IMG/VR virus record: IMGVR_UViG_3300000032_000001
DNA length: 49,747 bases
DNA from: a virus
Strand: one strand, 5' to 3'
Shown here: positions 2,532 through 12,274 of the stretch, one piece after another
Layout: the number at the start of each line of letters is the position of its first letter
Position numbering within the stretch: the first letter of the stretch is position 1
Made by a program: the position numbers and the translations under genes
The notes under the pieces: model-generated
What the model saw: the letters and a program-made list of their open reading frames with translations, nothing else
The model's database searches: none
Told to the model about the DNA's origin: nothing

Positions 2532-4139
2532 TTATACCGCCTCTTGCACTAATTCGGTATCCTCAATCTTCAGGTCACCTGTTTTTATCTGCAGGCCTGC
2601 GCCTTTTGCCCAGGCAAGGATTTCACTGTTCAGCTTGGGATCGTTTGCAGCAGGCTTGTTCTTATCAATCTTGGCCTGCACAAGTTTCCTTCCCTGTACT
2701 TCCAGGCAGGCTGACAGCTTCCCCTTATCGTCGGCTACGAGGACAACCCAGGAGGAATTATCCTTCATAGCCTTGCCGTATGAGGCTACACAGTTATGCA
2801 GCGTCATACCGGCTTCCAGCAGTTCCATTGACTCTTTGGGCATGAAGAACTTCAGCCGGTCCGTTTGCATAGACAGCCGCCTGATAATTGGTTCCGGGAC
2901 TTCGAATTTCAGGTTCTTATGTTCCTGTCTCCGGTGCCTTATAACCATCCAGTCATGCAGATCTTTAATCCTGACCTGTTCAGTTTTAATTGCTTCCCTG
3001 TTCTCGGGGTTAAGCTGGTTATAGAGGCTGAAGCAGTCCCAGAGGCGTAGGTGTATCGCGTCTTCTACCATGTGGACGATTCCGGCTTCACCATACAGAG
3101 AGCGCATTTTTTCCAGGAACTTGAATTGCTCTGTCTTGAGCTGGTACCCATTCCCCAGTTCCTTCAGCCTGGCGAACATCCTGACGGCGTAGTCATAGTT
3201 CTGGCATAACTCAAAGGCCTTCTTTAGCAGGACAACGTCAAAAGGGTCTCCGTTCAGTATTTTTCTTATGGCCGGCTTATCCGGCAGGGAGCGGACTTCT
3301 GCAAGAGCTGTAACGAAAGCTTTCTTTGACTTCTTGGCCAGGGTGATAGCCTCATCCATAAAGCTGTGGTCTTCAATCAATCTGGCTTTCCAGAAAAAAC
3401 CGATAGTAGCCTGGTCGTTACGGTATATGGCCGGCAGATTTGGAGCGTCGGGAAGCATGACACGGTACGCCATATTCATGATCGGCAGCAGGAACATGCC
3501 ATAATATGAACCGGGGCTGACGTACATTGAAGGTATTTTATAGCCCAGCTGCTTTTCCAGCCTCTCATGAACGCTCTCCCGGAGAGTCTTCAGCAGCTCG
3601 TTAAACTTCATCCTCTCACCCTGCTTAATCAGGCTGTAAGGTATGAAGAATTTCAGGATACTCTTACTTAGGAATTCCAGTTTGAACGGATTGCCGATTT
3701 CCAGAGTTTCCACTTTACAGTCTTCATTGTAGCGGGTGAACGTCGTAGTACGTTTGGCCAGATTAAAACGGAATCTCTCCTTATACTTTCCTCCGTACAC
3801 TCTCAGCAAATCCCGGAACTGCACAATGCTGCTGTTGATTTCCAGGATGACTATACTCTTATACGTCTTGACGCTTAGTCGGATTTTATTCGGCGCCTGC
3901 ACGTTACGGCCTATGGCTATTGCATTATCGGCGTGCCTCATCCCGCAATAAGGGCAGTGGAAATGCCTGCCCTTCTCATAATGCGTAGCTCCCGGAGCTT
4001 TACCCCAGGCTGAGGTAAAAGCCTGGCCGCAGGACTCACAATAATATTGAAAGTGGTGCAGACCGTTTTCCAAGTAGCCCAGGTCTTCAGCGTAGGCTGT
4101 GAACATTTGCGGAATAACAACCTCAGCGGTTTTTTGCAT
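2532..4139 (-). CDS. PcfJ-like protein with N-terminal zinc ribbon
   Basis: 535 aa. CESCG...HCPYCG zinc-ribbon pattern. The C-terminal LHNCVASYGKAMKDNSSWVVLV...LEVQGRKLVQAK resembles the PcfJ-like domain signature as I recall it. Confidence 0.45.
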   Translation of the reverse strand: MQKTAEVVIPQMFTAYAEDLGYLENGLHHFQYYCESCGQAFTSAWGKAPGATHYEKGRHFHCPYCGMRHADNAIAIGRNVQAPNKIRLSVKTYKSIVILEINSSIVQFRDLLRVYGGKYKERFRFNLAKRTTTFTRYNEDCKVETLEIGNPFKLEFLSKSILKFFIPYSLIKQGERMKFNELLKTLRESVHERLEKQLGYKIPSMYVSPGSYYGMFLLPIMNMAYRVMLPDAPNLPAIYRNDQATIGFFWKARLIEDHSFMDEAITLAKKSKKAFVTALAEVRSLPDKPAIRKILNGDPFDVVLLKKAFELCQNYDYAVRMFARLKELGNGYQLKTEQFKFLEKMRSLYGEAGIVHMVEDAIHLRLWDCFSLYNQLNPENREAIKTEQVRIKDLHDWMVIRHRRQEHKNLKFEVPEPIIRRLSMQTDRLKFFMPKESMELLEAGMTLHNCVASYGKAMKDNSSWVVLVADDKGKLSACLEVQGRKLVQAKIDKNKPAANDPKLNSEILAWAKGAGLQIKTGDLKIEDTELVQEAV

Positions 4140-4683: not shown

Positions 4684-5016
4684 TCATGCGAAAGGGTATA
4701 AACCAGGCAGGAGGTCACTGTTATAGCCGTAAACTCTATGGATCATTACACCAGGATATTTTTCATTCCGGTAGACCTCGACGGTTATTGGGTTATCTTT
4801 TCTGATCTTTAGTTCTCCGGTACCTTTTACCCAGCCTTTGGCCGCTTTCTTCTCGTCTTCAGCTGATATGTAGGCTTGCAGATCAGAGATGCTTTCTTCA
4901 AGGATATAGTTACCATCCAGTCCTTTATTCAGGTTGGTTAAGTCATTAAGAATCTGTTCCAATGTCTTTTGAGACATGTTACTGCGCTCCTTTCTTTTTA
5001 ACTCTTTTTCGCTCAC
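4684..5016 (-). CDS. Hypothetical protein
   Basis: 110-aa ORF, co-oriented, with a short overlap with the upstream HNH gene. Confidence 0.5.
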   Translation of the reverse strand: MSEKELKRKERSNMSQKTLEQILNDLTNLNKGLDGNYILEESISDLQAYISAEDEKKAAKGWVKGTGELKIRKDNPITVEVYRNEKYPGVMIHRVYGYNSDLLPGLYPFA

Positions 5017-5605
5017 CTATCTTGTTATAAACGTCTGCGATAAGGACGCCTGTTTTTGTCAGTTCAGCATCATCTTTAATTAAGCCGAATTGGTTCAGTC
5101 TTACCAGCTGTTTCCGGGATACACAGATAAGGTTTTTAAGGTCAAAGTTCCGGTTATTACGGTCTCCGAATATAACTATATGACCGTCAGGCACCGGCCC
5201 GTTTGCAGCTTCCCAGATTAGAATGTGCTTGCCTTTCCATTTGTTCGGGTCTGCGACCTTGATATCGGCATAGCCATCACCGTTTACCCGTTCAGTGCCG
5301 ACAGGTTTGTAATTTCCGGGTATGTGGCCTTTCTTGAATTGCGTTGGTTCCCAGCCGCCAGTACCCTTTAAACCTTTATTCCATGGAATTAATCCTTTTT
5401 TAAACTGGGTCGGCTCATGCCCTTTATTAAGCCGGGAATCTATCCCGTTATGCAGACCGTGTTTGTTGGTAAGATTTACCATGGCTGAAACGCTTATCGA
5501 CATTCTGAACCGCTCATTAAACTTGGCTGTCAAGGCTTTAAAAGGACATCCGGAAATGTTGGCTGCTAGAAAATCGATATGCTCTTGGGTGTATTTACGG
5601 TTCAT
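4979..5605 (-). CDS. HNH homing endonuclease (free-standing)
   Basis: 208 aa. Duplicated GxEPTQFKKGxIPxNKG motif and C-terminal GHIVIFGDRNNRNFDLKNLICVS, typical of the HNH_3 type. Confidence 0.7.
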   Translation of the reverse strand: MNRKYTQEHIDFLAANISGCPFKALTAKFNERFRMSISVSAMVNLTNKHGLHNGIDSRLNKGHEPTQFKKGLIPWNKGLKGTGGWEPTQFKKGHIPGNYKPVGTERVNGDGYADIKVADPNKWKGKHILIWEAANGPVPDGHIVIFGDRNNRNFDLKNLICVSRKQLVRLNQFGLIKDDAELTKTGVLIADVYNKIGERKRVKKKGAQ

Positions 5606-5606
5606 C

Positions 5607-5873
5607 TTACTCCCTCAAAAAATCGGCTTTGAGCATTGGCGGTATCTTCTTTTTGCTTTTGTCGCTCTCGTCATCATCAACGCCGTATTCAAGCTGGATC
5701 TGTCTTCCCTTCAGTACCAGGGTACCGTTAGCAATAATCTGCGAAGCAAGACCTGTAACCGCCTTAGCCCTCAGTATCTCTTCTTTTAACTTATCGCCAT
5801 TCAGCTCTTCATCGCCCAGGCGTTCCAGCTGGGCGAAAAGGTGATTATTTAAGTCACCGAGCGTGTTCTGCAT
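5607..5873 (-). CDS. Hypothetical protein
   Basis: 88-aa co-oriented ORF. Confidence 0.5.
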   Translation of the reverse strand: MQNTLGDLNNHLFAQLERLGDEELNGDKLKEEILRAKAVTGLASQIIANGTLVLKGRQIQLEYGVDDDESDKSKKKIPPMLKADFLRE

Positions 5874-6367: not shown

Positions 6368-6676
6368 TTACCCTTCTTTCATCAATTCTTTTATTGTCAC
6401 CCCAACTATTCCAGGGCTTTCATCGCTATCGGTTGCTCTGAAGTGCGCCTTCGGGTGCTGGGGATACATAAATTCAATCATGCAAAAATTGGCCGCATCA
6501 ACGAGAAATTCTGTATTCCCTGTCCTCTTGTACGCCTCCAATCTTTTCTCCAGACTGGCTACCATATCCACCATTCCCGGCTTGCAATTTTCTTTCAAGG
6601 AGCCGTATTTGTGATAACTGGTACGCATTCTATTCCGGCGCAGTCTATCAAATTCTTCACTGTATTCAGCTTCCAT
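6368..6676 (-). CDS. Hypothetical protein (possibly MazG-like nucleotide pyrophosphohydrolase fold)
   Basis: 102-aa ORF. Only a weak resemblance (KYGSL...LEKRL...FLVDAANFCMIEF) to small phage NTP-PPase-like proteins. Confidence 0.4.
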   Translation of the reverse strand: MEAEYSEEFDRLRRNRMRTSYHKYGSLKENCKPGMVDMVASLEKRLEAYKRTGNTEFLVDAANFCMIEFMYPQHPKAHFRATDSDESPGIVGVTIKELMKEG

Positions 6677-6681
6677 TCGTC

Positions 6682-7731
6682 TTAGCCTTTCATATAATAA
6701 GAAGTCTCAAATCCGTCTGCCTTCATAGGCAGCCCGGGAGCCCAGTCAAGAGGACACCCCATAACCTCGTTAACTGTTTTTAAATCACCCTGGCCGGCCG
6801 GGACTTCCAGGACTGCTTCGTCGTGCACATGGAAAACTATCTTATAACCATAACCGGCAAGCCTCAGCAGTGCTTCGGCCAGACAATCACGGGCTGTTGC
6901 TTGCACAATATTTTCGACGAGCCGGCCGGAATATGTCCTCAAGCGGCCCCATTTGCCTTTTTCGTACCCCTCATATGTCAGGCCCAACTTGTCAAACCGC
7001 CGGTCAATTTCCATTCTTGGTCGGACAAAAGCAAGGCGCCGTCCGGAAGGAAGGCGGATGAATAGTACTCCCGGCTCATAAATAAAGGCCAGGCCGTATT
7101 GAAGCACTACTGTAGCTTTTTCTGTGACAGCTTTTATAGCAGCGCTCTCCACGTCATGCCAGAACCTTACGATATTTTGATTAGCTTGCCGCCAGGCCTT
7201 TACCAGGTCAGGCAACTCTTCTTCAGCCAGGCCCATTTTTAAAGCGCCCATGGAGATAAGCGCCCCCGCTCCGCCGGCATAGCCAAGCGCCAATTCTGCG
7301 ATCTTTCCTTTCTGCCGGAGCGGATTTCCCTTTGTTATGCTTTCCACCGGTACCCTGAACATTTGAGCAGCTGAGGCTTCGTATATTTTTCCGTGGGTAT
7401 TGAACACGTCCATCCGCCACTTCTCCCCGGCCAGCCAGGCTATTACTCTGGCCTCAATGGCGCTGAAGTCCGTTACAATAAACCTGCAGCCCTCGGAAGG
7501 TATGAAAGCAGTCCGTATGAGTTGGGAAAGCGTGTCTGGCGTGTCACCGAACAGCAGTTCTAAGCTTTCGTAATCGCCATTAAGCAAGAACTGCCGGGCA
7601 AGGTCGAGGTCGGGTAAATGGTTTTGAGGAAGATTGTGGATTTGCACTAACCTTCCTGAATTTGAGACTATTCTACCGTTTACCATGAACCTGTTCTTTG
7701 GCCCGGCATTGAGAATATCATAGGTTCTCAT
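6682..7731 (-). CDS. Family A DNA polymerase, C-terminal half, preceded by a 24-aa C-intein
   Basis: Motif A DFSAIEARVIAW, motif B RQKGKIAELALGYAGG, motif C HVHDEAVLEV. The N-terminus MRTYDILNAGPKNRFMVNGRIVSN followed by S matches intein blocks F/G. Confidence 0.85.
   Translation of the reverse strand: MRTYDILNAGPKNRFMVNGRIVSNSGRLVQIHNLPQNHLPDLDLARQFLLNGDYESLELLFGDTPDTLSQLIRTAFIPSEGCRFIVTDFSAIEARVIAWLAGEKWRMDVFNTHGKIYEASAAQMFRVPVESITKGNPLRQKGKIAELALGYAGGAGALISMGALKMGLAEEELPDLVKAWRQANQNIVRFWHDVESAAIKAVTEKATVVLQYGLAFIYEPGVLFIRLPSGRRLAFVRPRMEIDRRFDKLGLTYEGYEKGKWGRLRTYSGRLVENIVQATARDCLAEALLRLAGYGYKIVFHVHDEAVLEVPAGQGDLKTVNEVMGCPLDWAPGLPMKADGFETSYYMKG
7660..7731 (-). other. Split-intein C-fragment (IntC, 24 aa) ending VSN with +1 Ser
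   Basis: TYDILNAGPKNRFMVNGRIVSN aligns with the DnaE IntC VYDIGVERDHNFALKNGFIASN. An in-frame TGA at 7747..7749 prevents a longer IntC. Confidence 0.7.
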
Positions 7732-8657
7732 TTCCCTTTTTTCCTTTCAAGAGTGCGTTTTAATGTGGCTTTACGTTGCTCTATGTAGGCCTTATATTGT
7801 TCTGGATCTTTTCTAAGGTCCTCCCAGAAGCTCTTTAAACCTCTGCTTGCCGCCGGACCTTGCTTTTTGCGATCAACTGCCTTTCTCGCATCAGCAGTTA
7901 TTCTCGCTCTTTCTTCTGGGTCTTGTATACTCTCCCAGCGTGTTTTTGCTTTGCCTGATATTTTTGTAGCTATCTCTTCTTTTTGCGCTTTTGTTCTACG
8001 CTCCCATAGAGCAAAAGCGTTTTCTCTTGTTTTAACTGATCTTTTATGCTTCCATAGAAGCTTCTCTTTTAAAAGGCGCGTGTCTTCTTCCTTTTTGGCT
8101 CCGATTCTAGCCTTAGCTTTAGTTTTATTAGCTATTCTTAAAGCTCGTCGTGATGCTTTATATGCCTCTCTCGGATTATCCTTACGCCACTGTGCTGCTT
8201 TCTGAGATAGGGCTTCATAGTCCGACCAATCACTAGCGCGTTTAATGTCTGATAACTTTTTTACGTATTGTTCCTTCAGCCCAGGATTTGCAGCCATTTT
8301 ATCCCAAAATATTCTACCTCCTGCTTCGCCGTCAGCCTCTCCTCCTGGTGAGATGTTATACGACAACTCAAGGGGCTGCTGGGCTATATAGAACCGTTCT
8401 AGTTTTTGTGCCGCCGGTTTATTAGGAGCCGTATCAAGCAATTCAACCTTAAAACTATTAGGGCCGTATTTACGAATAGCGTTATAAAACGGATGGTTGC
8501 GGTCCTCGTCGAAGGCCCTTCTCTTATGCTGCCTCCAACGCTCTTGGATGCTTGATTTAGTAAGGCCGATATAACTCTTTTCAGAAGGTGAAGTAATTTT
8601 ATATATCCCGTACATTATCGCCGCACCATAGTTTCCTTTCATGTTTTCTTGCGTCAC
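7728..8657 (-). CDS. GIY-YIG homing endonuclease located between the two polymerase/intein halves
   Basis: MYGIYKITSPSEKSYIGLTKSSIQERWRQHKRR...NAIRKYG. The C-terminus is Lys/Arg-rich. Its stop overlaps the IntC start as ATGA. The true start may be ATG at 8615 or 8642. Confidence 0.8.
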   Translation of the reverse strand: MTQENMKGNYGAAIMYGIYKITSPSEKSYIGLTKSSIQERWRQHKRRAFDEDRNHPFYNAIRKYGPNSFKVELLDTAPNKPAAQKLERFYIAQQPLELSYNISPGGEADGEAGGRIFWDKMAANPGLKEQYVKKLSDIKRASDWSDYEALSQKAAQWRKDNPREAYKASRRALRIANKTKAKARIGAKKEEDTRLLKEKLLWKHKRSVKTRENAFALWERRTKAQKEEIATKISGKAKTRWESIQDPEERARITADARKAVDRKKQGPAASRGLKSFWEDLRKDPEQYKAYIEQRKATLKRTLERKKGK

Positions 8658-9876
8658 TCAGTGCCATTTTTTCGTTTGGTCCTACCCAGACGGTATGCTC
8701 AGGTGTGGCTGTGATACCGTCCCATTCGATAACGTCTTTTTCTCCACTGAATACTACTCCGTTATGATTAACCCATGTGCTACCGTCCCAAACTTTATCG
8801 GTTATTAGAACTCTTTCGATCGGTTTATCACATATTACGCTCTCCTTAGTTCTCACCCTGACTAAGGACCCCTCAGCTATACACCACCTTCCCGTTCTGT
8901 TAGCCCCATAAAACTGCATTGTTCCCCGGATCCTGTTGTCCATGCAGTGCGCCCGGTCCATGGCTTCATATTTTTTAACTGAAGTCCTTGACATCTCCTG
9001 GCGAAGCTCCAGTACCCGTTTGACCGTTGCGCTCTCCGTCTGCTTCAGCAGTTCCGGAACGGATTCTTTATTGAGGCTTTCAACCTCCAGCCCGTCAGTC
9101 TCAAGCAGCCAGGCTTTCAGCTGTGAAACGCTTTTGGGATTGTCCAGACCAGTTAGCTTGATTGCTTCTTCAGTCCGCCGCTGCTGGTAGGCCGTGTCAC
9201 ATGCTATCGCATTTTTGACCAGGTCAAGGTCAATGAGCACGCCCCTGTCGTTAATGGCCTGGTCCAGGTTCCAGAGCTTCTGTTCAAACGCTGAAATAGG
9301 ATGGCGGAGAAGCTTTTCCCGGATGGTTCTTTCAACTACGACATCCTGCCGGCAATATTCCTTGAACTGCTCCCACTTCTCGGGTGCGTGTTCGGGTAGA
9401 TTCCTGGTCCGTTGACCGTTAGTTTTGGAAGGTTTGCATGGGACAGAGAAATACCGGATTAAGGCTTTGCCGGCAGCGTCTTTTTGCTGCTGGAGCTTCA
9501 GGGCTTTTGCCACGTCTTCCAGGCGCATCGGCAGTCCCAGGGTCAGGGCGTGAACCTGGGTGCAGCGCCAGTTGGTTGGAGGGATGAAATCCATTTGGCA
9601 TTGGTTTAAACGAAACTCGAAATATTTTGATAAGCATACTCTTTCAAAATTGGCATTGAAGGCGGTCTTAACGATATTTGGATTGAGTATTGCATCTTGT
9701 AAATGGATAGGCAGCCTTTTACCACCGGTCAGGTCTATTACTTTTACCGGCTCGTCATTAGAGGCATATCCGAAAAGCAATATTTCAAAATCCGGGGCTT
9801 CGGTGTAAGCATAGACACCGCATTTTTTGAGGTCTACGCTGCTGTATGTTTCCAAGTCGATTGATAGAGTAATCAT
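8599..9876 (-). CDS. Family A DNA polymerase, N-terminal half (3'-5' exonuclease) fused to the N-intein
   Basis: ExoI motif SIDLETYS. The sequence stays polymerase-like up to FYGANRTGRW and is followed by a Hint-like tail and a stop. Confidence 0.85.
   Translation of the reverse strand: MITLSIDLETYSSVDLKKCGVYAYTEAPDFEILLFGYASNDEPVKVIDLTGGKRLPIHLQDAILNPNIVKTAFNANFERVCLSKYFEFRLNQCQMDFIPPTNWRCTQVHALTLGLPMRLEDVAKALKLQQQKDAAGKALIRYFSVPCKPSKTNGQRTRNLPEHAPEKWEQFKEYCRQDVVVERTIREKLLRHPISAFEQKLWNLDQAINDRGVLIDLDLVKNAIACDTAYQQRRTEEAIKLTGLDNPKSVSQLKAWLLETDGLEVESLNKESVPELLKQTESATVKRVLELRQEMSRTSVKKYEAMDRAHCMDNRIRGTMQFYGANRTGRWCIAEGSLVRVRTKESVICDKPIERVLITDKVWDGSTWVNHNGVVFSGEKDVIEWDGITATPEHTVWVGPNEKMALSDARKHERKLWCGDNVRDI
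8602..8883 (-). other. Split-intein N-fragment (IntN, 94 aa) starting at Cys332 of ORF 8599..9876
   Basis: Block A CIAEGSLVRV and block B GITATPEHTVW. It follows the polymerase sequence ...GANRTGRW. The Cys codon is at 8881..8883. Confidence 0.75.
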
Positions 9877-9881
9877 TTTCC

Positions 9882-10136
9882 TTACCCCAGCATTTCTTCT
9901 AATTCTCTGTCCCGCTCACGCTGCAGGCGCCGCTTATGCCCTTCGACATCGACCTTCTGGACGATCCAGCTAGTCACTTTGGTCGAGGTCTCGATAAACG
10001 CAACTGCCTTGCCTACGCTGTAACCTCTGACGGTATCACAGACAACCGGATCCCCTACTTGGAGTTCTAGGTCAGTAAAGAAGTCGTAGAGAACTTCCGT
10101 GTTGCCGGCGAAAGAAATTTGTACAATCTTGTTCAA
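9882..10136 (-). CDS. Hypothetical protein
   Basis: 84-aa co-oriented ORF tightly packed against the polymerase gene. Confidence 0.55.
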   Translation of the reverse strand: MNKIVQISFAGNTEVLYDFFTDLELQVGDPVVCDTVRGYSVGKAVAFIETSTKVTSWIVQKVDVEGHKRRLQRERDRELEEMLG

Positions 10137-11100: not shown

Positions 11101-11658
11101 TTAATTTAAGACGTTGAAGTCTTCCGCTGCCGAAGCGACCGACTGTATCTCCGGACGCTTGTCCGATTCCGGAACAAGGGTCGGTTTACCGGCAGGTTTG
11201 ATAACTAACTCGCTGAGCAGTTCGCCAAAAGGCTTCCTGCCGATTGACTTTTCCATAGCAGTGATACCGAAGATCACTTTTGGAGCGTATATCTTTTCTT
11301 CCGGATATTCGGCTGCCGTTAATACCTTGGCTACGGCTCCCTCATCGATGTATTTTCGGTTACTCCTGCCTTCGACCAGCTTCCATCCGGGCCATTTCTT
11401 TCCGTGATTTTCAGCCTGGTTGAGAGCGTAGGCCTGGACATCAGCCGCCCACTTCTGCAGTTCATCCGCCCGGGTCAGTATGTCTGCAATCTCATCATCC
11501 GATAATAAAGGCGGCTGCTGGAAATCGTACTTGGCGAGCTCAAGGTTGCTTTCCGCCCTGGCTCTGCAGGTCTGCCGGGCTCTGCAAAAGCGGCAGTGCT
11601 CACCTGCACAGAATTGGCCGTTTGCCGAAGAACGCCTGCGATGCACGGGGTTCGACAT
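11101..11658 (-). CDS. DUF2800-family PD-(D/E)XK nuclease, C-terminal fragment (frameshifted)
   Basis: Cys cluster FCAGEHCRFCRARQTC. It overlaps the N-terminal fragment in another frame around 11600..11658. Confidence 0.7.
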   Translation of the reverse strand: MSNPVHRRRSSANGQFCAGEHCRFCRARQTCRARAESNLELAKYDFQQPPLLSDDEIADILTRADELQKWAADVQAYALNQAENHGKKWPGWKLVEGRSNRKYIDEGAVAKVLTAAEYPEEKIYAPKVIFGITAMEKSIGRKPFGELLSELVIKPAGKPTLVPESDKRPEIQSVASAAEDFNVLN

Positions 11659-12274
11659 ATTCCTGCGCCCAGGTCAGGAGCTCTTCAACTGTCATTTCTT
11701 CAGTCGATATACTGTCAAGGCGGGGTTGGACGATGGTCATCCTGACTTTGGAAAAGTCGTACAGCATGTTGAAGGTGGATATAGCGCCCAGGCCGTAAAG
11801 CCGGGTCTGTGGGTTTTCTGTAGCTGAGACGGGCACCCCTTTACCATACTTGAGATCTATGACCTCCAGGGTGTCGTCGGAGATAATCACAACGTCCCCG
11901 GTACCGAACCCGAACGGTACCCATTTGGAGAAGTCTAATTTCTGTTCCAATAAAATCAGGCTGTCGGGGCAGCCGTTTACCGCATCCACGAACCGTTCTG
12001 ATATAACGGCCGTGTAGCTCTCCAAGTAATCTTCCATGTCGGCCGCGTACAACGGATCTGCCTGAAAGCTTGCAAGTCTCTTAGTATAAACACCGGGTTT
12101 AATTTCTCTGAGCAGAAAGCGCCTAAGCTTCAGTTCTGCTATCGCGTGAGCGAGTGTACCTTCCGAGGCGTAACTGCTTGTCTCTTCCGGAAATTCCTGC
12201 TCAAGCCTTGCGCTTGGCGGGCAGGAAAGCCACTTGTGTGATGCCGAGGCTGCCAGAATTGCATGATCGGCCAT
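11600..12274 (-). CDS. DUF2800-family PD-(D/E)XK nuclease, N-terminal fragment (frameshifted)
   Basis: LAASASHKWLSCPPSARLE...EGTLAHAIAE...IDLKYGKGV. The frame is lost near GGCAAACGG at about 11610..11625. Confidence 0.75.
   Translation of the reverse strand: MADHAILAASASHKWLSCPPSARLEQEFPEETSSYASEGTLAHAIAELKLRRFLLREIKPGVYTKRLASFQADPLYAADMEDYLESYTAVISERFVDAVNGCPDSLILLEQKLDFSKWVPFGFGTGDVVIISDDTLEVIDLKYGKGVPVSATENPQTRLYGLGAISTFNMLYDFSKVRMTIVQPRLDSISTEEMTVEELLTWAQEYVEPRASQAFFGKRPILCR

Follow-up and report, generated by a model that had tools for sequence, protein, structure and literature searches.

How can a phage DNA polymerase be produced from a gene that is broken in two, with an endonuclease gene lying between the parts? 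The question is raised by a locus at positions 6682-9876, on the minus strand, of the IMG/VR record IMGVR_UViG_3300000032_000001 (49,747 nucleotides (nt); this whole stretch of analysed DNA is called the window below). We consider it highly probable that the locus, which lies in a phage replication module, is a 'fractured' SPO2-like polymerase gene, in which a mobile cassette made of a split intein and a GIY-YIG endonuclease sits between Trp331 of the polymerase and the next residue, and whose two products would be joined by trans-splicing. A preliminary description of the DNA had proposed this reading, and the insertion, the Hint fold, the splicing residues, the GIY-YIG open reading frame (ORF) and the short C-terminal intein fragment each withstood analysis. 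By all testable features, the locus belongs with the fractured genes as Dassa et al. 2009 described them, and this assignment is supported.

The polymerase is complete across the break

Three ORFs make up the locus. The N-terminal ORF (9876..8599, 425 amino acids) consists of residues 1-331 of a family A polymerase (PolA) and a 94-residue tail, and ends at a TAA stop (8601..8599). The middle ORF (8657..7728, TGA stop at 7730..7728) encodes a GIY-YIG protein of 309 amino acids at maximum. The C-terminal ORF (7731..6682, 349 amino acids) has 24 residues ahead of the remaining PolA, opening with MRTYDILNAGPKNRFMVNGRIVSN followed by SGRLVQIHNLPQ. All three are on the minus strand, as are the features described below.

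The N-terminal extein (N-extein, 8884..9876) is formed by SPO2-like polymerase residues 1-331 and ends in ...FYGANRTGRW; it spans the 3'-5' exonuclease domain and the first part of the polymerase domain. At Cys332 (codon 8883..8881) the sequence switches to the 94-residue tail, the candidate N-terminal intein fragment (IntN, 8599..8883: 94 codons at 8883..8602 and the TAA at 8601..8599), which uninterrupted homologues do not have. The candidate C-terminal fragment (IntC, 7660..7731) has 24 codons, encoding MRTYDILNAGPKNRFMVNGRIVSN with blocks F and G and the terminal Asn118, as assigned from homologous heads of other C-halves and from the alignment to Npu DnaE. The C-terminal extein (C-extein, 6682..7659) begins with the +1 Ser (7659..7657), continues with GRLVQIHNLPQ... 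and ends at a stop codon (6684..6682). IntC starts at an ATG that overlaps the endonuclease stop as ATGA (7728..7731), with a purine-rich Shine-Dalgarno-like run before it. This 4-nt overlap is kept in four related loci (L003, L005, L008 and L015) and occurs as TTGA in a fifth (L006).

The ORF coordinates, the Cys332 switch, the ATGA overlap and an in-frame TGA upstream of IntC, as given in the preliminary description, all agree with the sequence. The endonuclease had been placed in a third frame; there are in fact two frames in all, with the polymerase halves sharing one (start coordinates mod 3 = 0) and only the endonuclease differing (mod 3 = 2). Read in the intein frame, the region between IntN and IntC contains 39 stop codons, the last of them being the TGA at 7747..7749. 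IntC cannot be longer than 24 residues because there is no start codon between this TGA (7749..7747) and the ATG.

Based on the phrog_17 DNA polymerase profile, residues 1-331 of the N-terminal ORF correspond to profile positions 670-975 (E = 4.7e-60) and residues 25-348 of the C-terminal ORF to positions 976-1233. Since the matches meet at 975/976, the polymerase is covered without a gap and the insertion is exact. The C-terminal ORF also matches phrog_10285 (E = 1.2e-108) and Pfam DNA_pol_A. The joined exteins, 656 amino acids long where a product of about 655 had been expected, can be aligned over residues 1-655 with four uninterrupted homologues (66-72% identity), and the junction is free of gaps. 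These homologues (~650 amino acids) read ...FYGANRTGRW-AGRLVQVQNLP... and contain nothing that matches the 118 residues; the 94 and 24 residues are lacking there and are hence an insertion, and the claim that no polymerase sequence is missing holds.

Judged by sequence, the interrupted enzyme belongs to the SPO2-like family A DNA polymerases, cluster 3 of PMC10201439. Its N-extein is 62% identical to the polymerase of Bacillus phage SPO2 (gene L) and 64% identical to that of Brevibacillus phage Emery, both of which are among the uninterrupted homologues. The motifs are intact, namely Exo I (DLETYS, residues 7-12), A (DFSAIE), B (RQKGKIAEL) and C (HVHDE). Databases name these N-halves 'hypothetical protein'.

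The 94 and 24 residues resemble a class 1 intein

IntN runs from Cys1 (CIAEGSLV...) through block B, with T60-P-E-H63 (ITATPEHTVW), and a conserved LW.G to a variable tail, DNVRDI. We found 23 homologous IntN tails, 89-108 amino acids long, every one of which ends just past LW.G. When the profile of the family was aligned to Npu DnaE with hhalign, 97 columns were in register, with a probability of 86.6% and P = 4.5e-6. The alignment pairs ITATPEH with IRATKDH, LSDARKHERKLWCGD with IDEIFERELDLMRVD, YDI with YDI and NGRIVSN with NGFIASN, and sets IntC, MRTYDILNAGPKNRFMVNGRIVSN, against the Npu DnaE sequence YDIGVERDHNFALKNGFIASN. Against the PDB, the best match of the family profile is to NEQ068, the N-half of the split Nanoarchaeum PolB intein, across block B and weak (E = 0.12).

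An AlphaFold2 model of IntN joined to IntC, built from an alignment that included natural contiguous mini-inteins, has a mean predicted local distance difference test (pLDDT) score of 90 and a predicted template modelling (TM) score of 0.64, with IntC at pLDDT 84-88. The top four PDB structures retrieved with this model by Foldseek are Npu DnaE split-intein structures (probability 1.00, TM-score 0.52-0.66). When the alignment had no paired rows, IntC was left undocked in the model (pLDDT ~40) and the intein matches in Foldseek were sub-threshold. The likeness of Hint blocks A and B and of IntC blocks F and G to DnaE, first seen by eye, is thus borne out by the profile alignment and by the structural matches.

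The residues required for splicing are conserved. In a first family alignment Cys1, His63, Asn118 and Ser+1 are invariant and Thr60 is at least 90% conserved. In a second, C1 and H63 are again invariant, T60 is at least 90% conserved, N118 is present in 12 of the 12 rows that include IntC, and the +1 residue is Ser or Cys. Asp99, like the other splicing residues, is invariant or nearly so in relatives down to 53% identity. Among all sequences fetched, the +1 position of intein-less polymerases is Ala in 167 and Ser in 3, and that of intein-bearing polymerases is Ser in 23 and Cys in 1, as expected if splicing requires the nucleophile. The NRF...SN/S constellation (a slash marks the insertion point here and below) is also seen in full-length polymerases that carry a contiguous mini-intein at this site; such mini-inteins would have to splice because the polymerase chain is otherwise interrupted. 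Taken together, the alignments and the model support the assignment of the 94 + 24 residues as a class 1 intein that is predicted to have the Hint fold.

In a separate observation, MAFFT aligned block B of IntN (VI.WDGITATPEH, 8700-8740) with block F of IntC (MRTYDILNAGPKN, 7690-7731), a pairing that may stem from the pseudo-twofold symmetry within the Hint domain.

The short IntC is a property of the family

All 13 homologous C-halves start M-[RK]-T-Y-D-I, 24-25 residues ahead of SN/S. The unusual shortness of IntC, which had been pointed out for the window, is therefore real and family-wide. In the hhalign alignment, the 10-residue gap relative to the DnaE IntC falls exactly at its first strand, MIKIATRKYL. 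Contiguous mini-inteins at the RTGRW site are 124-140 amino acids long, and their stretch from LW.G to TYDI is an unconserved linker; thus, family-wide, the part of the C-terminal splicing region that is conserved amounts to ~23 residues. The fractured genes of Dassa et al. 2009 have IntC fragments of 33-54 residues and IntN fragments of 88-105 (PMC2677866), and Aranko et al. put natural IntC at 35-36 residues and the presumed minimal Hint domain at ~135. With 24 residues in IntC and 94 + 24 = 118 in total, the present intein lies below the published IntC ranges and below the presumed Hint minimum.

We suggest tentatively that this could be the most compact natural split intein yet: a 118-residue Hint domain with a 24-residue IntC that lacks the docking strand and the helper histidines, is under selection and homes as a unit, in a family that shows all proposed stages of endonuclease capture at one site. 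If the 24-mer splices efficiently, it would be a natural IntC of peptide-synthesis size with a different association mechanism. Short IntC fragments are wanted for protein semisynthesis, and a natural one of 24 residues is worth trying.

A GIY-YIG endonuclease gene lies between the halves

The identification of the middle ORF as a GIY-YIG endonuclease, made initially from the letters alone, is upheld by profile searches. Pfam PF01541 (GIY-YIG) matches with 31.1 bits against a gathering cutoff of 22.6, PHROG homing endonuclease families match with E = 3.6e-20, and TIGR01453 ('group I intron endonuclease') matches with E = 2.8e-12 and 47.1 bits, below its cutoff of 56.05. The GIY and YIG motifs, R26, H30, E73 and N87 are invariant across 6 homologues, and the ORF is conserved in L003-L006 and L008. 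An hhalign alignment of the endonuclease family with I-TevI is in register and not significant (probability 2.7%), and phmmer with the endonuclease found no match in the PDB.

There are three candidate starts: GTG 8657 (309 amino acids, 59-nt overlap with IntN), ATG 8642 (304 amino acids, 44-nt overlap) and ATG 8615 (295 amino acids beginning MYGIYKIT, 17-nt overlap). The 309 residues and the 59-nt overlap of the preliminary description are correct for the maximal, GTG-started ORF, but translation probably begins at ATG 8642 or 8615, which the relatives and the gene call of the Joint Genome Institute favour. In L003, L004 and L006 the endonuclease start lies within the conserved Leu-Trp codons of IntN (CTATGG or CTTTGG), and what forms the variable IntN tail past LW.G is the 5' part of the endonuclease gene, translated in a different frame. 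A start inside IntN codons fits the model of Dassa et al., in which an invading element provides a stop codon upstream and a start codon downstream (PMC2677866). A -1 frameshift at the A-rich run by the endonuclease stop (GGAAAAAAGGGAAATGA), which could in principle fuse the endonuclease to IntC, was considered; since L003-L006 do not share the junction sequence, it was rejected as a conserved feature.

The cassette has moved as a unit

There is clear evidence, from comparison of DNA sequences, that IntN, endonuclease and IntC were recently transferred en bloc. The locus L008 (ENA ERZ27315067) encodes an N-half that is 88% identical to that of the window, while the IntN parts are 100% identical. 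Over 1,268 nt (7640..8907) the two DNAs have no differences; this tract comprises the 1,224-nt cassette, 24 nt of the 5' extein and 20 nt of the 3' extein. Outside it, the DNA of the N-extein is 80% identical, that of the C-extein 86%, and the outer flanks ~74-75%. At the extein divergence of 16.7%, the chance of zero differences over 1,224 nt is ~1e-97. The edges of the tract lie within ~20 nt of the intein boundaries, which is a signature of homing with short co-conversion tracts. As far as we have found, the 1,268-nt tract is unusually direct sequence evidence of a split intein and a free-standing endonuclease moving together.

Cassette and extein similarity are at odds in more distant loci as well. 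Between the window and L003 the exteins are 65% and 73% identical, IntN 49% and the endonuclease 41%; between the window and L005 the corresponding values are 53% and 56%, 60% and 59%. The rankings by cassette and by extein similarity disagree.

A second run of perfect identity with L008 (7094-7299, 206 nt) is found in the otherwise 86%-identical C-extein. Its start lies 12 nt upstream of the position (codon at 7287) at which the motif B intein inserts, and it could be the footprint of a past gain or loss at the motif B site or an unrelated recombination patch. The locus L009 (7217-9091) is near-identical to L008, and its endonuclease is called at only 199 amino acids and its C-half at 320 amino acids, from a later start. 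Decay of this copy of the cassette or a poorer assembly may be the cause.

Proposed mechanism and alternative explanations

Under the fractured-gene reading, the operon would be transcribed as a single message. Translation of the N-terminal precursor would be terminated by the stop codon that came with the 5' end of the endonuclease insert, and the C-terminal precursor would be translated from the ATG that overlaps the endonuclease stop, behind the Shine-Dalgarno-like run. IntN and the 24-residue IntC would then associate and splice in trans, through an N-S acyl shift at Cys1, trans-esterification to Ser+1 and cyclisation of Asn118, to give a 656-residue polymerase, ...ANRTGRW-SGRLVQIHNLPQ... 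The endonuclease would cut intein-less polymerase alleles near the conserved site, during co-infection or infection of a lysogen, and repair would copy in the whole cassette with very short co-conversion tracts.

Several results weigh against this reading. Pfam detected no Hint or intein family at E <= 1 in the ORFs or at E <= 10 in 17 fused members of the family, and phmmer with the fused intein found no match in the PDB; NCBIfam likewise gave no Hint match for the ORFs. The check by Hint and intein profiles that had been proposed thus gave nothing with Pfam; we read this blank as limited profile sensitivity, because the hhalign alignment to Npu DnaE (86.6%) is in register. The Foldseek E-values are modest (0.01-0.035), and they were obtained with IntN and IntC fused artificially into one modelled chain. 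The strand by which DnaE-type halves dock is missing from IntC, and Asn107 and Ser117 stand in place of the block F His and the penultimate His of the contiguous relatives (VHN, P[HN]HRF); with both histidines absent, Asn cyclisation may be slow or assisted differently. The start codon of the endonuclease is ambiguous, counts in a promoter and terminator scan were not above those in shuffled sequence, and the identical tract shared with L008 does not prove that this endonuclease catalysed the transfer.

Some of these points would suit the only serious alternative, which we regard as unlikely: a non-covalent two-subunit polymerase, in which the intein halves serve as a dimerisation module that does not splice. 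The absence of the two histidines and the truncation of IntC relative to DnaE are consistent with it, and Dassa et al. point to Aeh1 nrdA, a phage gene that is fractured with no intein and yet yields a functional enzyme from its two parts (PMC2677866). A pure docking module, however, would not need the change from Ala to Ser at +1, which occurs only with the intein. Cys1, Thr60/His63, Asp99, Asn118 and Ser+1 are constant, or nearly so, down to 53% identity, and the contiguous mini-inteins with the same residues in full-length polymerases would need splicing. Histidines at block F and at the penultimate position are, besides, not universal among active inteins: the DnaE split inteins have a penultimate Ser and still splice.

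It is very improbable that the polymerase is a pseudogene wrecked by insertion of the endonuclease while the phage uses another polymerase. A neighbouring exonuclease gene with a 1-nt frameshift and the shortened endonuclease and C-half calls in L009 would be in keeping with decay, but both halves have open frames of full length and retain every Exo and Pol motif, the same split is present in many lineages at 53-88% identity, and the break is bordered by matched, conserved intein halves rather than by a random truncation.

Still less likely is a group I intron that carries a GIY-YIG ORF and is removed at the RNA level, the 94 and 24 residues then being misread intron or exon. GIY-YIG genes are often intron-encoded, and the sub-cutoff match to TIGR01453 (47.1 vs 56.05 bits) points the same way. 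No Rfam family, group I and group II introns included, was detected at E <= 1 on either strand of 6500..10000, however; the 94 and 24 residues are conserved as protein, with a predicted Hint fold and splicing residues, and the transferred unit stops at the intein boundaries.

That errors of assembly or sequencing made a contiguous intein gene look split, as a metagenome assembly with a 1-nt indel in a neighbouring gene might suggest, has a negligible probability given the 39 stop codons that separate IntN from IntC in the intein frame, the exact N-half on 5 contigs, the identical cassette in an independent ENA assembly and the same layout in a complete chromosome, CP126462.1.

Distribution and architectures of the family

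The three-gene layout of the fractured gene was seen in the DNA of five other loci (L003, L004, L005, L006 and L008) and is kept across relatives at 53-88% identity. L003 is a Caminicella sporogenes prophage in a complete bacterial chromosome (CP126462.1), and L004-L006 are metagenomic contigs. The exact N-half of the window is present on 5 contigs.

An exhaustive search with the IntN profile retrieved 2,516 clusters (50% identity) at E <= 1e-3, 974 of them at E <= 1e-10. Architectures were counted in the best 150 of the family clusters. At the RTGRW site, 60 of these 150 are split N-halves, 11 are contiguous mini-inteins, and 2-3 are large contiguous inteins with junk-like linkers. In a further ~8, the N-extein and IntN are fused in frame to GIY-YIG, without IntC (P0249, P0257, P0258, P0275, P0279, P0284, P0291 and P0370; ~575-730 amino acids in complete examples). 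In the fused form GIY-YIG comes right after IntN (...LWRG..Y.IYRLTSPSGKSYIGLT...), and IntC with the C-terminal part of the polymerase remains a separate gene. In L015 (2501-5943), for example, the fusion has 724 residues, and the next gene, which again overlaps by 4 nt, encodes MRTYDILNAGPNNRFMANGVIVSN, then S... and the rest of the polymerase. The fused form stands midway between a free-standing endonuclease and one integrated into the intein. Two further polymerase sites are used by the family, motif B (AELA/CGYGG) and GGKLVEN/C, and two or three copies per protein are frequent.

Among 50,697 isolated-phage records, none is split, the intein family being found only within single polymerase coding sequences (CDSs), and no full-length match to the endonuclease was found. 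Two Ruminococcus phages with partial IntN matches were considered as split cases and rejected, as each match lies in a single 796-residue polymerase CDS. Megablast of the region against isolated phages gave no match, and a scan of species-representative genomes with the endonuclease family gave only 3 loci, all in metagenome-assembled genomes. The statement that the layout is rare in characterised phages is therefore right for isolates and does not extend to metagenomes, where the 60 split clusters of the top 150 are found. In the literature, we found no account of such an arrangement in a family A polymerase; the searchable literature is incomplete, and one may exist. A 2023 survey of PolA diversity does not mention inteins (PMC10201439).

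Other inteins were observed at these sites. P0171 and P0177 (and the truncated P0172) carry a different intein family (...VWVTGN/SGRLVQVQNLPQN) at the identical RTGRW/S point, which is thus a hotspot for more than one intein lineage. At motif B, the intein is a contiguous insertion of ~310 amino acids (AELA/C...VHN/CGYGG) in Streptococcus phage Javan113 (L001, 2486-5368), Gardnerella phage vB_Gva_AB1 (L002, 2492-5395) and L004 (5292-7283), whose polymerase bears both this element and the split GIY-YIG cassette. The main-frame 'linker' of the motif B intein is K/R-rich and junk-like, and an HNH-like motif (DRIDNNGHYEKGNLRF) is encoded by an out-of-frame ORF; such ORFs lie at 3993..4766 in L001 (257 amino acids) and at 5779..6621 in L004 (280 amino acids). 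This looks like an out-of-frame homing endonuclease nested in the intein.

Neighbouring genes

About 1 kb downstream of the C-half, on the minus strand of the window (4979-5605), is a free-standing HNH endonuclease gene (phrog_1891, E = 4.8e-69). It is likely a second mobile endonuclease of the replication module of this genome. A Pfam HNH_3 gene (PF13392, 207 amino acids) is also present in L008 and L009.

A PD-(D/E)XK exonuclease gene (phrog_69/DUF2800; 11101-12274, minus strand) is broken into two overlapping ORFs of 224 and 185 amino acids. The break is due to one extra base near 11620, GGCAAACGG compared with GGCAAA-GG in L008, where there is a single 390-residue gene. It is either an assembly error or a real frameshift.

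Comparison with known systems

The loci described by Dassa et al. 2009 from ocean metagenomes comprise gp41-1, gp41-8, NrdJ-1, NrdA-2, IMPDH-1, DnaE, ligase and terminase (PMC2677866). Like the present locus, they are mostly of phage origin, GIY-YIG is among their two endonuclease families, and the 3' end of the endonuclease gene overlaps the IntC gene; the IntN of 94 residues is inside their range of 88-105. They differ in that an SPO2-like family A polymerase is not among their host enzymes, their IntC fragments have 33-54 residues against 24 here, and they come from marine plankton rather than from Firmicutes-type phages and prophages. The tight interleaving seen in relatives here, with the endonuclease start in the Leu-Trp codons of IntN, and the evidence of recent en bloc transfer also set the present system apart. 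New relative to described fractured genes are, therefore, the host enzyme, the compact Hint domain with a 24-residue IntC, the endonuclease/IntN interleaving and the evidence of transfer en bloc. The finding adds family A phage polymerases to the enzymes known as fractured by split inteins.

The Npu and Ssp DnaE inteins, the best structural and profile match, share the class 1 features Cys1, TxxH, penultimate Ser and terminal Asn, and have their natural split at the position of endonuclease insertion. In contrast to the present system, the DnaE halves are at distant loci with no endonuclease, their IntC is 35-36 residues with a first strand (MIKIATRKYL) that has no counterpart here, block F keeps the His that is replaced by Asn here, and the +1 residue is Cys rather than Ser. 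NEQ068/NEQ528 of Nanoarchaeum equitans PolB is likewise a natural split intein in a replicative DNA polymerase, but the host enzyme is of family B, the genome is archaeal, the genes are distant with no endonuclease between them, and the match is below significance.

Contiguous PolA inteins are found in APSE P45, Jersey-like Salmonella phages, Streptococcus Javan prophages, Gardnerella vB_Gva_AB1 and Ruminococcus NatCom phages. They belong to the same intein sequence family and reside in the same enzyme family, and one is annotated 'intein-containing DNA polymerase precursor'. They are, however, single CDSs, those examined are at the motif B site AELA/CGYGG, and they have His at block F and at the penultimate position and Cys at +1. 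In Javan113, an HNH-like ORF is nested out of frame in the contiguous PolA intein.

Actinobacteriophage inteins with an out-of-frame endonuclease are similar in that the endonuclease gene fills the endonuclease-insertion region of the intein in a different frame. The authors of that work propose that free-standing endonucleases invade inteins and that split inteins are a frequent outcome. The endonuclease families and host proteins differ, and the main frame of those inteins is open, whereas 39 stops interrupt it here, so that the present intein is truly split. A single family may preserve, at one site, a mini-intein, a split intein with an out-of-frame endonuclease, an in-frame IntN-endonuclease fusion and a contiguous intein with a nested out-of-frame endonuclease. 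It supplies natural intermediates that bear on a long-standing question, the entry of endonucleases into inteins and the splitting of genes.

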